Source: Myxococcota bacterium | GTDB lineage: Bacteria; Myxococcota_A; UBA9160; UBA6930 | DNA length: 64,000 bases | Assembly: GCA_965223415.1 (NCBI GenBank) | Contig: OZ245002.1 | Location: forward strand, 4,928,001-4,992,000 | Reading direction: 5' to 3' | Shown: positions 988 to 36,069 of the stretch, piece after piece | Position numbering within the stretch: position 1 is the stretch's first letter | How the letters are laid out: the number at the start of each line of letters is the position of its first letter | Notes under the pieces: generated by a model | What the model saw: the letters and a program-made list of their open reading frames with translations, nothing else | What the model was told of the DNA's origin: nothing | Databases searched by the model: none | Program-made: the position numbers and the translations under genes

Positions 988-1047
988 GGCGGCGTGGGGT
1001 CGTACTCCATGAGGTGGCGCGTGCGTGCTCGGTGTGTGCGGACTCAC

Positions 1048-1081
1048 TGGCACGCCGGGAGGGATTCGAACCCCCGACCCT
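1048..1081 (-). pseudogene. tRNA-Arg(UCG) 3' fragment, part 1 (variable loop, T arm, acceptor 3' strand, CCA), split by IS110
   Basis: Reverse complement reads AGGGTCGGGGGTTCGAATCCCTCCCGGCGTGCCA, with a TTCGAAT T-loop and CCA end. Confidence 0.85.
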
Positions 1082-1094
1082 TGTATCTACTCCA

Positions 1095-1305
1095 CTCACC
1101 CGGATCTGGTTCAATAGGGTCAGAACGGGTTTCGGGGGAGGGTCGCCGTCCCGACCCAGAGGCATGGTCCTCGTACCTGAGAGAGGCGCCCTCGCCCGAT
1201 CTCGCAAGCTCGAACGGTATCCCGAGGCAGCGGTCTGCCGCTCGTCCTCGCATGCACAAGGAAGAGCACCGAGGTCGGCACCGAGGCTCCCGACGCTCCC
1301 GTTCG
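1095..1305 (+). ncRNA. IS110 bridge RNA (ends approximate)
   Basis: Target loop: CCCGACCC (1150-1157) and ACCTGAG (1175-1181). Donor loop: ACGGTATC (1214-1221) and ACAAG (1256-1260). Each pair flanks an internal hairpin. Closing stem GAACGGG (1123-1129) / CCCGTTC (1298-1304). Confidence 0.85.
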
Positions 1306-1320
1306 AGGAGGAAGAAGGGG

Positions 1321-2496
1321 ATGCGCTTCGTTGGGATCGACATCGCCTCGGAAACGCACGTCGTCGCGATGGTGGGAGAAGACGGGGGCGTGCTGCTGAA
1401 GCCGGTCTCGTTCCGGGAGGAGGCGGCTGGCTACGCACTGCTGTGGGAGAAGCTGGGAGGCCCCGAGGACACGCTCGTAACGCTCGAGGCAACGGGGCAC
1501 TACTGGAAGAACCTGTTCGCGGCGCTTGCGGCGAGGGGTTTTGCCGTGGCGTTGATCAACCCGCTGCGCAGTCGCCGGTTCGCACAAGAAGACTTGGAGC
1601 GGACGAAGACCGACGCAATCGATGCGCTCGGCCTGGCTCGCTTCGGAGCACAGAAGCGTCCGAGGGTGACTCGCCTTCCGGACGCGGCGACAGAAGAGCT
1701 TCGTGAGCTCGTCCGGCTCCGCGATCGTCTGGTTCAGGACTTCGGGGACTGCACCCGGCGGCTCCACCGCATGGTCGATCTGGGCTTCCCAGAGCTCAAA
1801 CGGTACGTGAAGCACCTCGATAGCCAGCTGTCGACGGGGCTGCTGCGGGAGTACCCCACGGCAAGAGCCTTCCAGGAAGCCTCTGTGGGGCGCGTGGCAA
1901 AGCTTCGCTACGACGGTCGTCATCGTGTAGGCGATGCGCTCGCGAAGCAGCTCGTCGAGGCTGCGCAGAACTCGGTGGGCGCCCATCATGGCCCGGCCTA
2001 CCAGGTGCAGGTGCGTTACCTGTGCGAAGACATGGACGTCTTGCGCAAGAGACTCGGCGACATCGACCGCGACATCGCGGATCAGCTATCCGCGCACGAG
2101 GTCGGAAGCTTGCTGACGACGATCGATGGGATCGGGCCGACGACGGCAGCACGGCTCATCGCGGAGCTCGGTGACCCGGCCGACTTCGCCACGGCCGCAG
2201 CCCTCGCCGCCTACGTGGGCGTCGTTCCAGGCCTAAAGCAGTCGGGCAAGCGCCAAGGCAAACGCGGGAACCTCTCGCCAATCGGTCACGCGCGGCTACG
2301 TCGCGCACTGTGGATGCCGACGTTGGTCGCCGTTCGGAAGAACCCCTGGGTGCGGGCCCACTACGAGCGGCTGCGCGACAACGGCAAGCCCGCAAAGGTC
2401 GCGCTGATCGCCTCGACGAGGAAGCTGCTCATCGCGGTTCACGTCGTGGCGAGGACCCGCAAGCCCTTCGTTCCACAGCTAGAGACCAACCCATGA
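1321..2496 (+). CDS. IS110 family transposase / bridge recombinase
   Basis: MRFVGIDIAS, TLEATGHYW and KTDAIDA (DEDD RuvC-like domain), IDGIGPTTAA, KQSG catalytic Ser, purine-rich RBS upstream of ATG 1321. Confidence 0.96.
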   Translation: MRFVGIDIASETHVVAMVGEDGGVLLKPVSFREEAAGYALLWEKLGGPEDTLVTLEATGHYWKNLFAALAARGFAVALINPLRSRRFAQEDLERTKTDAIDALGLARFGAQKRPRVTRLPDAATEELRELVRLRDRLVQDFGDCTRRLHRMVDLGFPELKRYVKHLDSQLSTGLLREYPTARAFQEASVGRVAKLRYDGRHRVGDALAKQLVEAAQNSVGAHHGPAYQVQVRYLCEDMDVLRKRLGDIDRDIADQLSAHEVGSLLTTIDGIGPTTAARLIAELGDPADFATAAALAAYVGVVPGLKQSGKRQGKRGNLSPIGHARLRRALWMPTLVAVRKNPWVRAHYERLRDNGKPAKVALIASTRKLLIAVHVVARTRKPFVPQLETNP

Positions 2497-2541
2497 ACCG
2501 AGAAAACCGGGCCCAGCCCCTTGCTGAAGATCACGGTATCT

Positions 2542-2556
2542 CAGGTTCGAAGCCTG
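2542..2556 (-). pseudogene. tRNA-Arg(UCG) 3' fragment, part 2 (anticodon stem-loop)
   Basis: Reverse complement is CAGG-CTTCGAA-CCTG (anticodon TCG). It joins part 1 seamlessly when the IS110 is removed. No D arm or 5' acceptor strand follows. Confidence 0.8.
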
Positions 2557-2597
2557 GGGCTAAATCGAGACGGAGCAGGTAGTTGGCCGGCTGCGAT

Positions 2598-3686: not shown

Positions 3687-4448
3687 CTACCGCGCCGGGG
3701 CCTCCTTCGGCAAGGCGGTGGTCTTCTTGGTGCGCCAGCTGCGGGGTCCGCACTTGAGCAGGTGGCCGTGGTGGAGGAGGCGGTCGAGCATGGCGGTGAC
3801 GGCTGCCGTGTCGCCGAGGAGCCGGCCCCAGTCGTCGACGGGTCGGTTCGAGGTGACGAGGGTGCTGGTGCGCTCGTAGCGGCGCATGATCAGCTCGAGG
3901 AGGTCCTCGGCGGCCGTGGTGGGGAGCTTGCGCATGCCGAGGTCGTCGAGGATGAGCAGCGGCACGCTCGCGATCTCGGCCAGGTACTCCTTGCGGGTGC
4001 CGTCGAGGGTCGCATCAGCGAGTTCCTCGAGGAGGACGTGGACCTCGCGGTAGGCGACGCGATGGCCCTGGTGGATGACGGCGAGGCCGATCGCCTGGGC
4101 GAGATGGCTCTTGCCCGTGCCCGGCGGGCCGAGGAAGACAGCGTCCTCGGCTTGCTCGAGGAAGCGGCCCGTGGCGAGCTCGAAGACCAGGGCGCGATCG
4201 ATCTTCGTATTGAAGCGGAAGTCGAAGCCGTTGAGGGTCCGGTTGGCGTCGCGGAAGCGGGCCTGCTTGATGCGCCGGGCCAGCAGTCGGTCCTGCCGGC
4301 GCTCGAGCTCGTCCTGGACGAGCGCCGAGAGCAGGTCGATGGCCGCCCACTCGCCCTTCTGGGCTTCGAGGAGCCGCATCTCCAGATGCTCGGCCATGCC
4401 CGAGAGCCGGAGCTTGCGCAGTGCGGGATCGAGTTCAGTCAGATTCAC
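3687..4448 (-). CDS. istB: IS21 helper ATPase IstB
   Basis: LRKLRLSGM, Walker A GPPGTGKS, Walker B LILDDLG, TSNRP, LDRLLHH, SWR. Confidence 0.95.
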   Translation of the reverse strand: MNLTELDPALRKLRLSGMAEHLEMRLLEAQKGEWAAIDLLSALVQDELERRQDRLLARRIKQARFRDANRTLNGFDFRFNTKIDRALVFELATGRFLEQAEDAVFLGPPGTGKSHLAQAIGLAVIHQGHRVAYREVHVLLEELADATLDGTRKEYLAEIASVPLLILDDLGMRKLPTTAAEDLLELIMRRYERTSTLVTSNRPVDDWGRLLGDTAAVTAMLDRLLHHGHLLKCGPRSWRTKKTTALPKEAPAR

Positions 4449-6024
4449 GAGAGGTCTCCTCGGTGCGGCGATCGATGAGATCGCGGTAGTGGGTGAGCTG
4501 GCGGATGAGCGGGTCCACCTGCTTGAGCGAGAGCGGCAGCTCGGGCTGACGCTCCAGGTAGCGCTTGACGAACGCGTAGGTGGGCAGCTCGAGGGCCAGG
4601 GCGGTGGCGCAGGCATCGTCGACGCGAGGGATGCCGTGGCGCTTGCACAGGGAGAGCACGCCCAGGATGCGACGCACCCCGGGCTCGCCGTCCAGGCGAT
4701 GGATCGCCTCACACACCTCGCCCACGTGGACGCCGGCGCGCCGGGCCCGCGCGAGCAGCTGGAGGGTCGTGGCCGGCGTCCGCTTCGGGCGGTCCTCCTC
4801 CCGCATCCTGCGGCGCCCCCGCCTCTGGCGGACGTGCTCGCGCAGCAGCTCCCCCGTCTGCAGATCGAGCATCCGCACCCGCAGCCCGTCCCATTGGACG
4901 GCCACCCGCCGCCCCAGCCAGCCCGGCGGCGCGTGGTAGTAGGCCCCCTCCACCTCGATGGCCCCGTCGAGGTGCACCGTGCGCTCGCCGTGCTGGTAGT
5001 AGCGGAAGGGCTCGATGGGAAGCCCGAGCAGGTGCGGCTTCTCCTCTTCGTACATCGCCGCCACCTGGCGCTTGGTCGTGCCGTGGATGCGGGTGTCGGC
5101 CCATCGGCGCTCCCAGCGGTCGAGGTAGGCCTGGGCCTGCTCGAGCGACTCGAAGCGCATCCCGCGGACCTTCTGCTGCGCGTGGCGCACCCCGGACTCG
5201 ACCTTCCCCTTGCGATCGGGGTGGCGCACCCGGCACGGAAGCGCCGTCACGCCGTAGTGGGCGAGCACATCGCGGTAGAGGGGGTTGAGCGCGGGGTCGT
5301 AGACGTCGGGCTTGAGAACGCCCTCCTTGAGGTTGTCGAGGACGACGGTGCGCGGTGCACCGCCCAGCCGGCGGAAGGCCTTCTCGTGCAGCTCCGACCA
5401 GACCTGGCTGCTCGACTTCCACACGAGCAGCCGAACGCACTTGCGGCTGTAGCCCAGGGTGAAGACGAACAGCCTCGTGCGCCGGTACTTCCCCGACCCG
5501 GGATGCCGCACCATCGGCCCGTCGCCGTAGTCGACCTGGCCCTCTTCTCCCGGTGCCGTCTCGATCACCGGGTGCGCCTCGCGCGGCGCCGCGGCTCGCT
5601 GCTTCGCCACGAAGCGCTTCACACTCGCATAGCTGAAGGCGAAGCCGTGGTCATCGACTAGGTCCTGCCAGATCGCCATCGCCGTCCGGCCCTGGCGCAC
5701 GCCCGCCTCGATCCACTCGCGGTAGGGCTCGCAGGCGCTGGCCTGGGGGCTCCGGCCCGGCATCGGCGGCCAGGCCGGATCGGTGGACGCCTCTTTGGCC
5801 GCTTTTGCCGGGGCCTTCGAGTCGGTGGACGCCTCTATGGCCGGGTTTGGGGCCCCGTGCCCCCAGCGACCAGGAGATCGCACCGCGATCCCCGCGGCCC
5901 GGAGGTAACGGCTCGCCGTCTCCCGGCGCACGCCCGTCGCCTCCTCGATCCGCCGAAGCGACCAGCCGAGGCGGCCAAGTGCCAGAATCTGCTCGCGTTT
6001 CTCGTTGCCCAGAAGGTTCGCCAT
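4435..6024 (-). CDS. istA: IS21 transposase IstA
   Basis: N-terminal HTH (WSLRRIEEATGVRRETASRY), DDE motifs QVDYG, VLDNLK and KGKVE, RIHGTT. Confidence 0.95.
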   Translation of the reverse strand: MANLLGNEKREQILALGRLGWSLRRIEEATGVRRETASRYLRAAGIAVRSPGRWGHGAPNPAIEASTDSKAPAKAAKEASTDPAWPPMPGRSPQASACEPYREWIEAGVRQGRTAMAIWQDLVDDHGFAFSYASVKRFVAKQRAAAPREAHPVIETAPGEEGQVDYGDGPMVRHPGSGKYRRTRLFVFTLGYSRKCVRLLVWKSSSQVWSELHEKAFRRLGGAPRTVVLDNLKEGVLKPDVYDPALNPLYRDVLAHYGVTALPCRVRHPDRKGKVESGVRHAQQKVRGMRFESLEQAQAYLDRWERRWADTRIHGTTKRQVAAMYEEEKPHLLGLPIEPFRYYQHGERTVHLDGAIEVEGAYYHAPPGWLGRRVAVQWDGLRVRMLDLQTGELLREHVRQRRGRRRMREEDRPKRTPATTLQLLARARRAGVHVGEVCEAIHRLDGEPGVRRILGVLSLCKRHGIPRVDDACATALALELPTYAFVKRYLERQPELPLSLKQVDPLIRQLTHYRDLIDRRTEETSRESD

Positions 6025-6225
6025 GGCGGCGGGGGATCGCAGGTCCCTCGCCGTCGTCAACGTCCTGGGCGTCAGCCCCTATGGCCGCTTTTCAGACGTC
6101 CTTCTATGGCCGGTTTTGGGTGTCCACCGAGGGAGAGAGTCGAGGCGGGCGACGATCCCTTCGCGGTCGTCGAGGTCGAGGACGGGAGGCTCGGGCTGGG
6201 ACATGGCTCAGGAGTTCGCGGTGCG

Positions 6226-7579: not shown

Positions 7580-8239
7580 CTACGTCGAGCGGCTCGCATT
7601 CGCAGGAGGCGGGTAGCTCGCGCCGCCGGCGCTTCGATGCGTGCTAAGGAACTTCAGCGCACGCTCAAGCGTTCCGAAGCAAGGTAGCGCCGCACCACGG
7701 ACAGTGTTGAAGTCGATCATCCTCGTCATCGGTAGCTGGTCCAGGGTGGGCTTGTACGAACGACCGGCGGGAAAGTGTCGTGAGAGCCATCCCTTCGCGC
7801 CGCGGATCGCCTGAGGGTCATCGGGTGGGAGAGCGTCTTCGACGAGCCCTGGGCGCTCTTGACCGGACGAGCCAACAAGAGGGCGGCCTGCCATCTCTGC
7901 GACACATGGCAGGAAGAGCACCTCGTACTCGCGGTGGAGGAGGACAACTGCGACCGGAAAGGAGAGCCCGAGGCCGGCTGTCCATGACGCTACGAGAGGG
8001 CCGATCTCTGCCGGGCACCCGTCGTCTTCGTCGTGGAGAATCAGCAGCGCGTCCGCGTTTTTCTTCGTCGCTACGACTCGACACCCCCGCTCGATGCTCT
8101 CCTTCAGGGTGATCTTGGACCAACGCATCGGGTTGGACCATGGCATGTAGGGAAGGCCGAGATCAGCCCACAAGCGGCTGAGTAGGTTGCCGACTGCCTC
8201 GACCTCACCGCGTCCTTCAACTAGCACGTAGCCGGGCAT
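7580..8239 (-). CDS. DUF4276-family (TOPRIM-like) protein
   Basis: N-terminal VLVEGRGE, ILHDEDD (DxD), REYEVLFL, GAKGWLS..YKPTLDQ, directly downstream of an ABC/AAA ATPase. Confidence 0.8.
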   Translation of the reverse strand: MPGYVLVEGRGEVEAVGNLLSRLWADLGLPYMPWSNPMRWSKITLKESIERGCRVVATKKNADALLILHDEDDGCPAEIGPLVASWTAGLGLSFPVAVVLLHREYEVLFLPCVAEMAGRPLVGSSGQERPGLVEDALPPDDPQAIRGAKGWLSRHFPAGRSYKPTLDQLPMTRMIDFNTVRGAALPCFGTLERALKFLSTHRSAGGASYPPPANASRST

Positions 8240-8256: not shown

Positions 8257-9390
8257 TCAGTCCTGCGGAAAGCCCAGTTCTTGCTGGAAGCCTTCGACCC
8301 GAAGAACTTCGCCGAGGGTCATCAGCCCCGCGGTGACTGCCTGTCGCTGTGACTCCTGCATTGGGGCGATCGTGGTCTCACTTCCGCGGCGAGCAACGAC
8401 TCGAACGTGGTCGGCATCGAAGCGGTCGAGGAGGTCTGGGCTGTGCGTAGTCACGACAATCTGGCTGTAGTTGGATGCCTCAGCGATGTAGTCATAGATC
8501 AACGGGAGGGCACCTGGATGGACGGTGAGTTCCGGCTCCTCGATGCCGATAAGCGCGGGGCGTGGCTCCTGCTTCAGCGCAGTGATGATTCCTGCGACGC
8601 GGAGCGTCCCGTCGGATTCCTGCGCAGCGTCTAGCCACTTCAGCTTCTTCTTGAGGCCGGCACGGTGGTGGTGTTTGAATGTGACAGTGAGATACCCACC
8701 CGCCTGCTGGACTTTGATGTCCTCCACGTCGCCAGCGAGCTTGTTGAGTGCCTCGACTAGGTCGGGCTTCCAGTCACCCTGTTTCATGTCTTTGAGAATC
8801 GACACCCAGTTCGAGCCGTGCTGGTCCATCGGACGCGTCGCATCGTAGACGTGTGGCGTCCGAAGGGTGTCGGGGAAGATCGAGTAGACCGCGATGCTCC
8901 TGAGAACACGGGCGAGCGGTGCGAAACGTGTGTCCCCGGCGACGAGAGGGAGCACGAGACTCATCGGGTCAACTTCAGGGCGCAGATCGCTAGGCATATC
9001 TCGCCATTCCTGCTCAACGCGATGAATCCGGTGGGACCCACTCTCCCCGGTTACCGAGGCGACCTCGGACTTGACGCGATAGTCCTCGGTTCGGTCGCCC
9101 CCCAACGTGAACTGGTAGATGCCCGAGAACGAGGTGTTCTTGATCGTCAGCTGCACATTGAGGTCGAAGGGGGCACCAGAGCTGAACCGTCGGACCCTTC
9201 CGATGCCGCCGCGGCGGCTGATGGCTCCCTCAAGGCCGATCTGCACGCACTCGGAGACGAAACGGAGGAGGTCAACCGCGTTGCTCTTTCCAGAGCCATT
9301 GGGTCCAACGAGCGCCGTCAGGTTGTCCAGCTTCAGCCGAACGTCTCGCCCGAGGCTTCGGAAGTTGGATGCGCGGAGTTCCGTGATCAC
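8257..9390 (-). CDS. AAA_21 / ABC-type ATPase
   Basis: NFRSL, Walker A GPNGSGKS, signature-like ESDGTLR, Walker B IGIEEPE, H-loop TTHSP. Confidence 0.92.
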   Translation of the reverse strand: MITELRASNFRSLGRDVRLKLDNLTALVGPNGSGKSNAVDLLRFVSECVQIGLEGAISRRGGIGRVRRFSSGAPFDLNVQLTIKNTSFSGIYQFTLGGDRTEDYRVKSEVASVTGESGSHRIHRVEQEWRDMPSDLRPEVDPMSLVLPLVAGDTRFAPLARVLRSIAVYSIFPDTLRTPHVYDATRPMDQHGSNWVSILKDMKQGDWKPDLVEALNKLAGDVEDIKVQQAGGYLTVTFKHHHRAGLKKKLKWLDAAQESDGTLRVAGIITALKQEPRPALIGIEEPELTVHPGALPLIYDYIAEASNYSQIVVTTHSPDLLDRFDADHVRVVARRGSETTIAPMQESQRQAVTAGLMTLGEVLRVEGFQQELGFPQD

Positions 9391-9637
9391 CTGGTTCGGT
9401 CCAGAAGCGGCGCCCCACAATAGCCGGATTCCCCGGGGGACGCTCAAGCGGCCCACGGCAGCCGCAGTCGCGTCCCGAAGCGGTCCCCGCTACCACGTCC
9501 GCTCCCCGGGGGCCAGGGCTCCCGGTCATGGGGGCACCGCAGCCGCGCGGCCCTCTCCTTGGCTTTCCCGCGACCGAGAATCGTCTCAACCCGGCTCGTG
9601 CGGGCTGCCGATAAGGGGGCGAGGAGGTGGCGCGACC

Positions 9638-34410: not shown

Positions 34411-36069
34411 CTTCCCGTCCGAGAAGAGCCGTTCGTCGGCCTCTTAGTGGATCGTTGGCGGTCTTCGCGGGCGTTGAGAGTAGCGATGTCACAGCAGTCC
34501 CGGAGCCGTCGGGGTGAGTGAGCGACCGTGTTCCGATGCGCGGGCGCACGTGTCCACCGACCGAACCACTCTCAGGGGTTCAGGCGAACTCGCGAGTCAG
34601 CAGGTGGCGGGCCAAGGCGACGAGGTTGAAGCTCGTCACACTGGCCCAGACATAGGCCTTGAAGGACGCCAGGCCCCGCCAGGTGCATCGGTCCATCTGG
34701 AACGCTCGCTTGAGCGTCGAGATCACGCCCTCGATCCCCGAGCGGAAGTCACGAAGGCGCCGGAAGACCCAGGCGCTGCGCACCATCTCGTGGACCTCGA
34801 GTCCGCTCTTCTTGTTGAAGGCCATGTCTTCCACGCCGAGCGCCTTGGCCTTGGCAACGTTGTCCATGGACGCGAAGCCTCCGTCCATCGCCACTTGGCG
34901 GGGTGCCTTGCCGAAGAGATCTGCATGGCGCTCGAGCGTACGTTCGACCAGCGTCGAGTCCGTAGGGTTTCCTTCCTCGATGACACAGTCGAGGACGAGT
35001 GACGACCTGCCGCCAGTCAGACAGACCTTGTGACCGTAGTAGGTGCCTCGATTGTCCTTCACGAGGATGTCCGAGTGCGGCTCGAAGATCGACACGATCT
35101 TCTCGGCTGCAGGGACGCGCTCGCCTTCGAGGACACGGCGACGGCTCTGATCGATGACGCGCTCGACGAGGGGAAGCACCGCGAGGAGCTCTTCGCGAAG
35201 CGGCGTCGTGTCTTCGACTCGGGCGACCCTCTCCGCGACGCTACGGGCCGCTTGGCAGACCTCTTCCGTGGCCCGGATCATGCACCGATAGCTCGCGACC
35301 AGGTTGATCGACCGCCGGTGGAACTTGATCGCGTAGGCGCGTCGCTTCACGCAACGACGACGATCCGGGAACATCTTGCGCAGCGAAGGGCGTTGCTTCG
35401 CCATCCTTCGCAAAATCCGCGTCATCACCCGAACGCTGTCCCAGAGCAGGGCCGAGTCGGCGGGCTCGTGGATGTTCGCCTCGACGACCGTCGTATCCGC
35501 CCGAATCGTCTCGCCTCGTTCGATTCCTTCCCGGCGAGCCAGGCCGATCAACGCACGGTGGATGGCTTCCCACGTCTCGGGCCGGATCCGTTTGACGTTG
35601 TCCTGAAGGGTCTGGAAGCGGGGCCAGTCACCGAGCCCGAGTCCTACGAAGCTGCGGAAGGCGGCCGAGTCCTGGAGGTGAAACTCCAACTCCCGGTAGC
35701 TCAGCCCGTGGATCTGCTTGAGTAGGGCGATTCGAAGGACCTGATCGCCGCTGAGGCCCCGACGGCCGGTATCGGCGCGACGTTCCCCGATCAGATCTCC
35801 GTGCACAACAGCACCCAAGCGCGGATCCGCCCCGAGGATCCTGGCGATCATCTGCAGCTCTCGGGTATGTTGATGCGGACCCCATGTGGGCGTGAGTGAG
35901 AGCTGAGTTTCTCGGAATCGGCGCATCGCTTCACCCCCCGGTTGGCGAATTGCTGTGTATGTTCGGTAGGTTGGCACCACCTAACATACACCAATCGAAA
36001 CTCGATCGGGAGGCGCGTTTGCGCCAATTCCTTTTCTTCTCAGTGACTTACGAGTTCTTGGACGGGAAG
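34411..36069 (-). mobile_element. ISNCY-type (ISDol1-like) insertion sequence with 7-bp target duplication TAGCTTA
   Basis: IRs CTTCCCGTCCGAGAA / TTCTTGGACGGGAAG, TAGCTTA at 34404-34410 and 36070-36076. Confidence 0.88.
34580..35926 (-). CDS. DDE transposase (ISNCY / IS5-like)
   Basis: LSYRELEFHL, RADTTVVEANIH, KIVSIFE, YGHK, MDGGF, RSGIEGVIS. Confidence 0.92.
   Translation of the reverse strand: MRRFRETQLSLTPTWGPHQHTRELQMIARILGADPRLGAVVHGDLIGERRADTGRRGLSGDQVLRIALLKQIHGLSYRELEFHLQDSAAFRSFVGLGLGDWPRFQTLQDNVKRIRPETWEAIHRALIGLARREGIERGETIRADTTVVEANIHEPADSALLWDSVRVMTRILRRMAKQRPSLRKMFPDRRRCVKRRAYAIKFHRRSINLVASYRCMIRATEEVCQAARSVAERVARVEDTTPLREELLAVLPLVERVIDQSRRRVLEGERVPAAEKIVSIFEPHSDILVKDNRGTYYGHKVCLTGGRSSLVLDCVIEEGNPTDSTLVERTLERHADLFGKAPRQVAMDGGFASMDNVAKAKALGVEDMAFNKKSGLEVHEMVRSAWVFRRLRDFRSGIEGVISTLKRAFQMDRCTWRGLASFKAYVWASVTSFNLVALARHLLTREFA

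Follow-up and report, generated by a model that had tools for sequence, protein, structure and literature searches.

A probable IS621-type bridge recombinase element inserted in a tRNA-Arg remnant of a Myxococcota genome

Introduction

Several IS110-family elements choose their insertion sites by means of an RNA, and here we describe a probable further case: an insertion element of 1460 bp (right-hand CT core included) at positions 1082-2541, plus strand, of a 64-kb stretch of contig OZ245002.1 from a Myxococcota bacterium. This whole stretch is referred to below as the window. The seekRNA elements of the IS1111 subgroup share the protein family and the guide logic of the window element, with the RNA located downstream of the gene; the window element differs from them in that its RNA lies upstream of the gene, in the left end (LE).

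For IS621, the available parts of two papers (PMC11208160, PMC11208158) describe a bridge RNA with two binding loops. The target loop comprises a 9-nt left target guide (LTG), a linker of one nt, a hairpin, a right target guide (RTG) of 4 nt, or more in some orthologues, and a handshake guide of 2 nt. The donor loop comprises an 8-nt left donor guide (LDG), a hairpin, a 9-nt right donor guide (RDG) in discontiguous pairing with 7 bases of the donor, and a handshake guide of its own. In the published model for IS621, a promoter is rebuilt across the junction of right end (RE) and LE, and the RNA is expressed from the circle. The IS110 elements ISPpu10 and ISPpu9 of Pseudomonas putida target multi-copy REP hairpins, in which a 5' stem-loop boosts insertion (ISPpu10 preprint).

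The window element repeats the IS621 plan as far as the available descriptions go. The order of parts, from a 5' stem-loop through the target loop to the donor loop, is the same, as are the CT core and a recombinase with DEDD and serine residues; a candidate promoter would likewise be split across the RE-LE junction. On the other hand, the window RTG is 7 nt long rather than 4, the LTG abuts the hairpin without a linker, the RNA has an additional outer helix and the target is a tRNA remnant. On its sequence, we put at roughly 85% the probability that 1082-2541 represents an IS621-type element of the IS110 family that is intact and probably active, sitting at a site specified by its own bridge RNA.

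An intact element with a complete recombinase gene

The element is flanked by a CT dinucleotide on each side, read directly at 1080-1081 and 2540-2541. There are no terminal inverted repeats in 1082-2541, and both junctions carry the same CT core. The ends are kept in relatives, where the LE reads TGTAT or TGTAA and the RE reads ACGGTATCT, with the right end terminating in CT in all 36 relatives examined. Joining the flanks by script gives the target CCCGACC-CT-CAGGT, and joining RE to LE gives the donor junction ACGGTAT-CT-TGTAT, in which the left donor ACGGTAT and the right-hand copy of the core occupy 2533-2541 (plus strand). Cores, restored target and donor junction are therefore as given in the preliminary description, a reading of the same sequence that preceded this analysis. 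That description also placed the donor one base away from the donor of IS621; the two agree at positions 6-14 with the residues named in the available part of PMC11208158, and the comparison covers these positions only.

The sole long open reading frame of the element, at 1321-2496 (plus strand), encodes a protein of 391 aa (P0001) with a RuvC-like DEDD domain followed by a Tnp_20 domain. Its best start is the ATG at 1321, which is preceded by GGAGG, and the gene is whole. P0001 matches Pfam PF01548 (DEDD_Tnp_IS110) at 3.4e-36 in its N-terminal part and PF02371 (Transposase_20) at 3.3e-28 in its C-terminal part, and scores 254.5 bits against a cut-off of 140 for NCBIfam NF033542, 'IS110 family RNA-guided transposase'. 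By phmmer, its best solved relatives in the PDB are the bridge recombinases ISCro4 (9t56; 4.6e-37) and IS621 (1.2e-35), which bears out the earlier assignment to the RNA-guided recombinases of the IS110 family. In the comparison with ISCro4, which was made at the protein level alone, the GID, EAT, KTDA-DA and SG motifs align. When P0001 was aligned with 21 relatives of 68-90% identity, residues D7, E56, D98, D101 and S308 were invariant in all 22 sequences.

The window protein is nevertheless distant from IS621. Residues 142-224 include about 67 residues between the RuvC-like and Tnp domains that are extra in comparison with ISCro4 and IS621, and this stretch is common to all 22 aligned relatives (391-396 aa). 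Closer relatives of P0001 (84-99% identity) sit on metagenome contigs. At the DNA level, blastn found no similarity of the element to E. coli genomes, and the top match in a plasmid search was 68% identical, in Sandaracinus.

A candidate promoter of the sigma-70 type is split between the two ends. A -35-like hexamer, TTGCTG, lies at 2521-2526 (plus strand) in the right end and a -10-like hexamer, TATCTA, at 1084-1089 (plus strand) in the left end; they would be paired only in the circle junction, where 17 nt separate them once the ends are joined. In a sequence comparison, the TTG of the -35 and the TA of the -10 were each present in 36/36 junctions with the 17-nt spacer. The window hexamer has a final A and not T at the -10, and the integrated copy reads GGGATT at the place of the -35. 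Judged as sequence motifs, the split hexamers fit the circle-expression model described for IS621.

A conserved bridge RNA in the left end

To place the left end in a family context, we drew on 80 homologous loci from species-representative genomes, with protein identities of 47-71%. These genomes are mostly metagenome-assembled genomes (MAGs) from Myxococcota-like, alpha- and betaproteobacterial bins, and the upstream regions of the homologous loci align with the left end of the window element. A target-loop pattern matched 50 of 81 sequences (28 failed and 3 had no upstream DNA), and the 43 of these 50 with a recognisable left end were aligned as A2, the remaining 7 being dropped by the left-end rule. 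A covariance model, R1, built from the 42 relatives with the window excluded, matches 1133-1292 (plus strand) with 140.8 bits and an E value of 4e-25, while the second-best match in the 64 kb reaches 12.9 bits. The guides stand in the order expected for an IS621-type bridge RNA, in agreement with what had been proposed from the sequence of the window.

The RNAalifold consensus of A2 has two loops, the first made of a closing stem and an inner hairpin and the second of two stems and a hairpin, with an outer helix round both. Its 39 pairs are formed in 98.4% of cells, compared with 39-48% when the partners are slid by 1-3 columns; 15 of them show compensatory changes, and the observed covariation score was reached by 0/500 shuffles. 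All four guide segments fall within internal loops of this fold.

In the window, the core of the predicted RNA (1133-1292, plus strand) comprises the target-binding loop, the donor-binding loop and the outer helix. It is preceded by a 5' stem-loop at 1098-1130 (plus strand) in the minimum free energy (MFE) fold, and IS621 likewise has one before its target loop, as described in the available part of PMC11208158. The target-binding loop (1138-1193, plus strand) has a closing stem of 1138-1147 with 1185-1193, invariant in the 43 sequences, and an internal GAGG/CCTC hairpin at 1159-1172, of which 2 pairs show compensatory changes. The donor-binding loop (1196-1278, plus strand) has an outer stem (1196-1204/1270-1278), an inner stem (1208-1211/1264-1267) and a hairpin (1223-1250) with 6, 3 and 2 compensatory pairs respectively. 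The outer helix pairs 1133-1137 with 1288-1292 (A2 columns 79-83 with 268-272); 95.8% of its cells are paired and 2 of its pairs show compensatory changes. Its 3' strand belongs to a conserved tail that follows the donor loop, CCGAGGCUCCCG, which can pair with the bases that precede the target loop, so that both loops are enclosed. The available parts of the IS621 papers PMC11208160 and PMC11208158 contain no mention of such a helix. The hairpins and closing stem of the preliminary description are present in the covariation-supported fold, with the correction that an alternative partner, 1288-1292, is open to the outer TCGGG of that stem.

Two further features of the alignment concern parts of the scaffold that vary. 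The 5' linker of the target loop is 1-4 nt long across relatives, and three loci from Parvibaculum and Azospirillum (L007, L021 and L060) have a donor-loop hairpin enlarged by about 28 GC-rich nt (A2 columns ~185-223). Separately, an Rfam scan brought no family to or near its gathering score; the best candidate, sX15, was on the opposite strand with 23 versus 55 bits and was set aside as a chance match.

Guides of the window element match its own flanks and ends

All six guide elements published for IS621 can be read in the window. On the target side, the LTG (1150-1158, plus strand) consists of CCCGACCC and A1158, and matches target positions 1-8. The RTG, ACCTGAG (1175-1181, plus strand), is complementary to CT-CAGGT at 7/7 positions in the register of the family, and is followed by the handshake guide AG (1182-1183, plus strand), of which A1182 can pair with donor T7. 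On the donor side, the LDG ACGGTATC (1214-1221, plus strand) equals the right-end bases 2533-2540 at 8/8 positions. The RDG, AT-gc-ACAAG (1252-1260, plus strand), pairs with the donor CT-TGTAT at 7/7 positions round a 2-nt bulge, and the donor-loop handshake guide GA (1261-1262, plus strand) follows it, with G1261 able to pair with target C7 (1079).

The four guide strings of the preliminary description, at 1150-1157, 1175-1181, 1214-1221 and 1256-1260, are all found where it had placed them, with two of them now extended. Its eight LTG matches stand, while the full guide matches at 8/9 positions and lies one nt off the family register. Its RDG, ACAAG, is present as part of a longer, discontinuous guide of 9 nt that pairs with seven donor bases. 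The claim of that description that the element sits where its own target loop matches is borne out by 13/14 matches of the window guides on the element's own flanks, compared with no more than 9/14 on the flanks of 29 other loci. Elsewhere in the 64-kb window, no site for the target 14-mer with fewer than 2 mismatches was found.

Guides follow flanks across relatives

The preliminary description had also proposed that covariation of guides with flanks be looked for among homologues, and it is present on both the donor and the target side. The LDG equals the right end at 8/8 positions in 36/36 loci, including 3 single-base variants that are changed on both sides. The first base of the RDG pairs with donor position 14 in 43/43 sequences, as A:T in 26, T:A in 16 and G:C in 1, and the target-loop handshake base forms A:T with donor position 7 in 34/36 loci. 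On the target side, the three RTG bases that vary were compared with target positions 12-14 and match at 3/3 positions in 24 of 31 loci, at 2/3 in 5 and at 1/3 in 2. These sum to 84 matches, compared with a permuted mean of 31, and 0/5000 permutations reach 84. For LTG positions 1-7, the summed matches are 148 versus 95 when permuted, again reached by 0/5000. Between the donor-loop handshake base and target position 7, 30 of 40 loci have a Watson-Crick pair and 4 more a G:U pair (permuted mean for Watson-Crick pairs 18.5; 0/5000 reach 30). Four locus pairs share identical guide pairs, so these rows are not all independent. Guides follow flanks across the relatives of the window element.

Not every guide position takes part in this variation. 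Target positions 10-11 read CA in 31/31 loci, and none of the 43 sequences departs from TGAG in its RTG; therefore this subfamily reprograms only three of the five right-target positions. In this respect, it resembles ISPpu10 and ISPpu9, where the right guide is rigid and the left more permissive, and which likewise make an RNA-guided choice of a short conserved host sequence. A target-side hairpin gave no general signal in the window subfamily, where the median z of the left flanks was -0.32 and 5/39 fell below -1.5.

Two groups of relatives share right flanks. Three copies in a single MAG (L044, L045 and L063) share the right target CAGCG, as seen at L045 and L063, while their left targets fit their own LTG poorly (3-5/9), which suggests that the right side dominates site choice for these copies. 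The elements L003, L029, L015 and L080, from different MAGs, have a near-identical right flank, CATTGGAC..., although the RTG of L003 matches only 5/7; this flank is possibly a conserved repeat or gene end that serves as a common target.

The covariation bears directly on whether the guide-flank matches of the window could have arisen by chance, or whether the element could be a decayed relic without a working bridge RNA. Such an explanation could draw on the single-sequence MFE of the left-end RNA, which is no better than that of shuffled sequences (z = -0.43), and on the lack of an Rfam match. However, the z value of a single sequence is uninformative here because the RNA is 66% GC, and the covariance model match at E 4e-25, the intact 391-aa reading frame with all its catalytic residues, the four matched guides and family covariation sums that no permutation reached already contradict it. 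We therefore consider chance or decay highly improbable.

Register, folding and sampling of the left target guide

Several observations weigh against reading 1082-2541 as an active element at the site that its own RNA specifies, and most of them concern the LTG. Its match lies one nt nearer to the hairpin than in most relatives, with 8/9 matches in the shifted register and 4/9 in that of the family. Among the 43 sequences, 30 repeat the core dinucleotide directly ahead of a one-base linker; at this place the window reads CC-A, followed by the hairpin. At position 9, A1158 mismatches the core T. Beyond the LTG, the element is present in one copy in the 64-kb window, and 38 of the 81 sequences fall outside alignment A2, so that the selection leans towards scaffolds like that of the window. 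Finally, the MFE fold of the naked RNA, at -72.8 kcal/mol compared with -65.5 kcal/mol for the canonical fold (ViennaRNA), pairs LTG bases 1152-1157 with scaffold bases 1141-1146 in a competing hairpin.

The mismatch at the core deserves attention because IS621 strongly prefers pairing to both core strands, as stated in the available parts of PMC11208160 and PMC11208158, and the left guide of ISPpu10 is strict near the crossover (ISPpu10 preprint). One explanation is that the insertion is near-cognate: the true and possibly multi-copy target would be one base shorter, CCCCGAC-CT-CAGGT in the register of the family, and the remnant an off-register look-alike whose tRNA identity is incidental. 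The shifted LTG and its mismatched position 9 are what this explanation would predict, given that 28/40 loci fit the normal register better. It is also consistent with the frequent occurrence of relatives at imperfect left targets, LTG positions 1-7 being fully matched in only 2/40 loci in the normal register, and with a half-matched insertion reported for IS621 in the available part of 10.64898/2026.08.31.748434. However, the window has eight contiguous LTG matches, an RTG matched at 7/7 positions and a handshake base that pairs, and its total of 15/16 ties for the best among 30 loci scored. Moreover, the shifted register is the better fit in 10/40 loci; together with a 5' linker of between 1 and 4 nt, this means that the LTG register of the subfamily is not rigid. 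On balance, we regard a near-cognate insertion as unlikely and prefer a site specified by the element's own RNA.

The competing hairpin bears on a further point, since the preliminary description had held that guides folding into stems instead of loops would speak against a bridge RNA. The result is divided: the MFE of the naked RNA does bury the LTG, whereas the covariation-supported fold leaves all four guides in loops. The unpaired probability of the LTG is 0.34 in the window compared with a family median of 0.39, and 13 of 42 relatives have lower values. Because the relatives show the same tendency to bury the LTG, we regard single-sequence folding as carrying no information beside the covariation, and do not take it to refute the bridge RNA. 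The LTG is complementary to GGGUCG, an invariant scaffold strand of its own target-loop stem, as a consequence of the likeness between that scaffold and the tRNA sequence of the variable loop and T stem.

The target is a 3' remnant of a tRNA-Arg sequence

The flanks of the element, once rejoined, form part of a tRNA. Its left part (1048-1081, minus strand) contains the CCA end (1048-1050), the discriminator, the acceptor 3' strand (1052-1058), the T arm (1059-1075), the variable loop (1076-1080) and tRNA position 43 (1081), and includes the left target CCCGACC (1073-1079) with the left copy of the CT core. Its right part (2542-2557, minus strand) contains the right target CAGGT (2542-2546), the anticodon loop and the anticodon stem's 5' strand. 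On the minus strand, the order of parts in the restored site is anticodon stem, loop CTTCGAA, stem, a 5-nt variable loop, a T arm with TTCGAAT, the acceptor 3' strand, discriminator G and CCA, for a total of 50 nt that correspond to tRNA positions 27-76. The CT core falls at positions 43-44, and the site covers the 3' strand of the anticodon stem, the variable loop and the T stem of a tRNA-Arg sequence.

The amino acid identity follows from two comparisons. The 36 nt left of the element (1046-1081, minus strand) match annotated tRNA-Arg genes at 91-94% over 32-34 nt; these genes come from phage records and a Burkholderia plasmid, and all have the anticodon TCT by ARAGORN. The anticodon position of the window reads TCG in an alignment with two annotated tRNA-Arg genes. 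The tRNA likeness ends at 2557, at tRNA position 27, and the DNA that stands in place of the 5' half is unrelated and does not align with tRNA-Arg. ARAGORN found no tRNA gene in the 64-kb window or in the restored site, and neither an acceptor 5' strand nor a D arm is present. At a relaxed threshold, the program made only implausible calls, including one of 97 nt with a four-base anticodon over the site, and these were rejected. Because the 5' half is not tRNA-like and ARAGORN finds no gene, the target is a sequence derived from tRNA-Arg rather than a gene. The preliminary description was thus right about tRNA-Arg and, by alignment, about its anticodon, but what it had called a tRNA gene is a 50-nt 3' remnant.

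Surroundings and origin of the remnant

To the right of the remnant, the GC content is 60-65% up to about 9.5 kb, compared with 70-77% beyond. This lower-GC stretch contains a gene with a haem-binding domain, an IS21-type pair and a candidate defence pair of the HEC-01 type. The IS21-type pair, on the minus strand, begins 1.1 kb beyond the right end of the IS110 element with istB at 3687-4712 (IstB_IS21, 2e-61) and continues with istA at 4435-6060 (rve, Mu-transposase C). The HEC-01 pair, which PADLOC lists as a candidate defence system, consists of HEC-01B (7580-8239, minus strand; DUF4276, 2e-32) and HEC-01A (8257-9456, minus strand; AAA_21 ATPase, 3e-94). A further transposase gene, IS5-like with DDE_Tnp_1 and DUF772, lies among housekeeping genes at 34583-35980 (minus strand).

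Most simply, the remnant would be a displaced att-type repeat from an old integration, and the lower-GC islet with its IS21 and HEC-01 genes suits a decayed island to which such a repeat belonged. Islands and prophages that carry tyrosine integrases likewise have their address in the 3' part of a tRNA gene and its duplicated att copy, but their att sites are read by protein and recombined by a tyrosine recombinase, whereas the window element appears to combine a 14-nt site read by RNA with a DEDD/serine recombinase. Searches of the 64-kb window tell against an att origin, having found no second copy of the remnant or partner repeat, no tyrosine integrase and no intact tRNA.

These negative results lend some weight to a different history, in which a live tRNA-Arg(TCG) gene received the element and afterwards lost its 5' half, or had it replaced, in a rearrangement such as one involving the neighbouring IS21. 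The remnant does have every 3' feature including CCA, and the IS21 pair lies 1.1 kb away. On the other hand, the tRNA likeness stops at the start of the anticodon stem, and the identity blocks of att sites of anticodon-loop-type integrases, in the account that Williams gave in 2002, reportedly begin at that same point. The DNA to the right being a lower-GC islet with mobile and defence genes also speaks against this history. Loss of half of a live gene therefore seems to us quite improbable, and we favour a displaced att-type repeat. Since the copy that was hit would then be a 50-nt 3' remnant of this kind, its insertion would cost the host nothing.

A working model by analogy with IS621

We infer transcription, circle formation and catalysis from the behaviour of IS621. 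By this analogy, excision would join RE and LE into the donor ACGGTAT-CT-TGTAT and bring the -35 hexamer within 17 nt of the -10 hexamer, and the left end would then be transcribed into an RNA of about 200 nt. The donor loop, through its LDG and RDG, would hold the junction, and the target loop, through its LTG and RTG, would hold CCCGACC-CT-CAGGT. The DEDD/serine recombinase, with S308 as its most likely nucleophile, would exchange strands after the CT, and the position-7 handshake bases A1182 and G1261 may aid this exchange.

Implications of a tRNA-derived address

The tRNA origin of the site prompts one to ask if the address is a strategy. The lineage could have retargeted its bridge RNA to the conserved 3' half of a tRNA, and so home to tRNA-Arg(TCG) genes and to the att repeats of islands; this includes riding on or next to islands, and a target loop that tolerates the slippage of register seen in the one-nt displacement of the left guide. 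The preliminary description had suggested such reach to tRNA genes and island att sites, and had proposed counting how often homologues sit in tRNA or att sequences. As worded, its suggestion is not supported: among relatives with both ends defined, 0/35 restored sites contain a tRNA or T-loop motif, no tRNA was found anywhere in the 80 homologous loci, and one insertion (n = 1), in a window with neither a second remnant nor an integrase, underlies the idea of homing to tRNA or att sites. In the literature, we found no case in which IS110 or bridge-RNA elements are described as targeting tRNA genes, though the supplementary target tables of PMC11208160 may list such cases. Homing as a strategy thus appears doubtful.

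The element is a regular IS621-type unit of a known family at an unusual address, and neither the LTG offset nor the tRNA address changes what is known of how bridge-RNA elements work. As a natural case, it shows bridge-RNA logic cleanly in a high-GC lineage remote from E. coli, and it does so with an LTG that lies directly against the hairpin and mismatches the core T but evidently directed an insertion, or at any rate survived one. Its approximately 40 relatives form a comparative set for the rules of the subfamily, such as the 7-nt RTG, the fixed CTCA at the crossover and the variable 5' linker. If the tRNA-derived address were to recur in other copies, a link would exist between RNA-guided insertion sequences and the tRNA and att hot spots of genomic islands, and homing, if true, would put an RNA-guided recombinase in a niche long held by tyrosine integrases.

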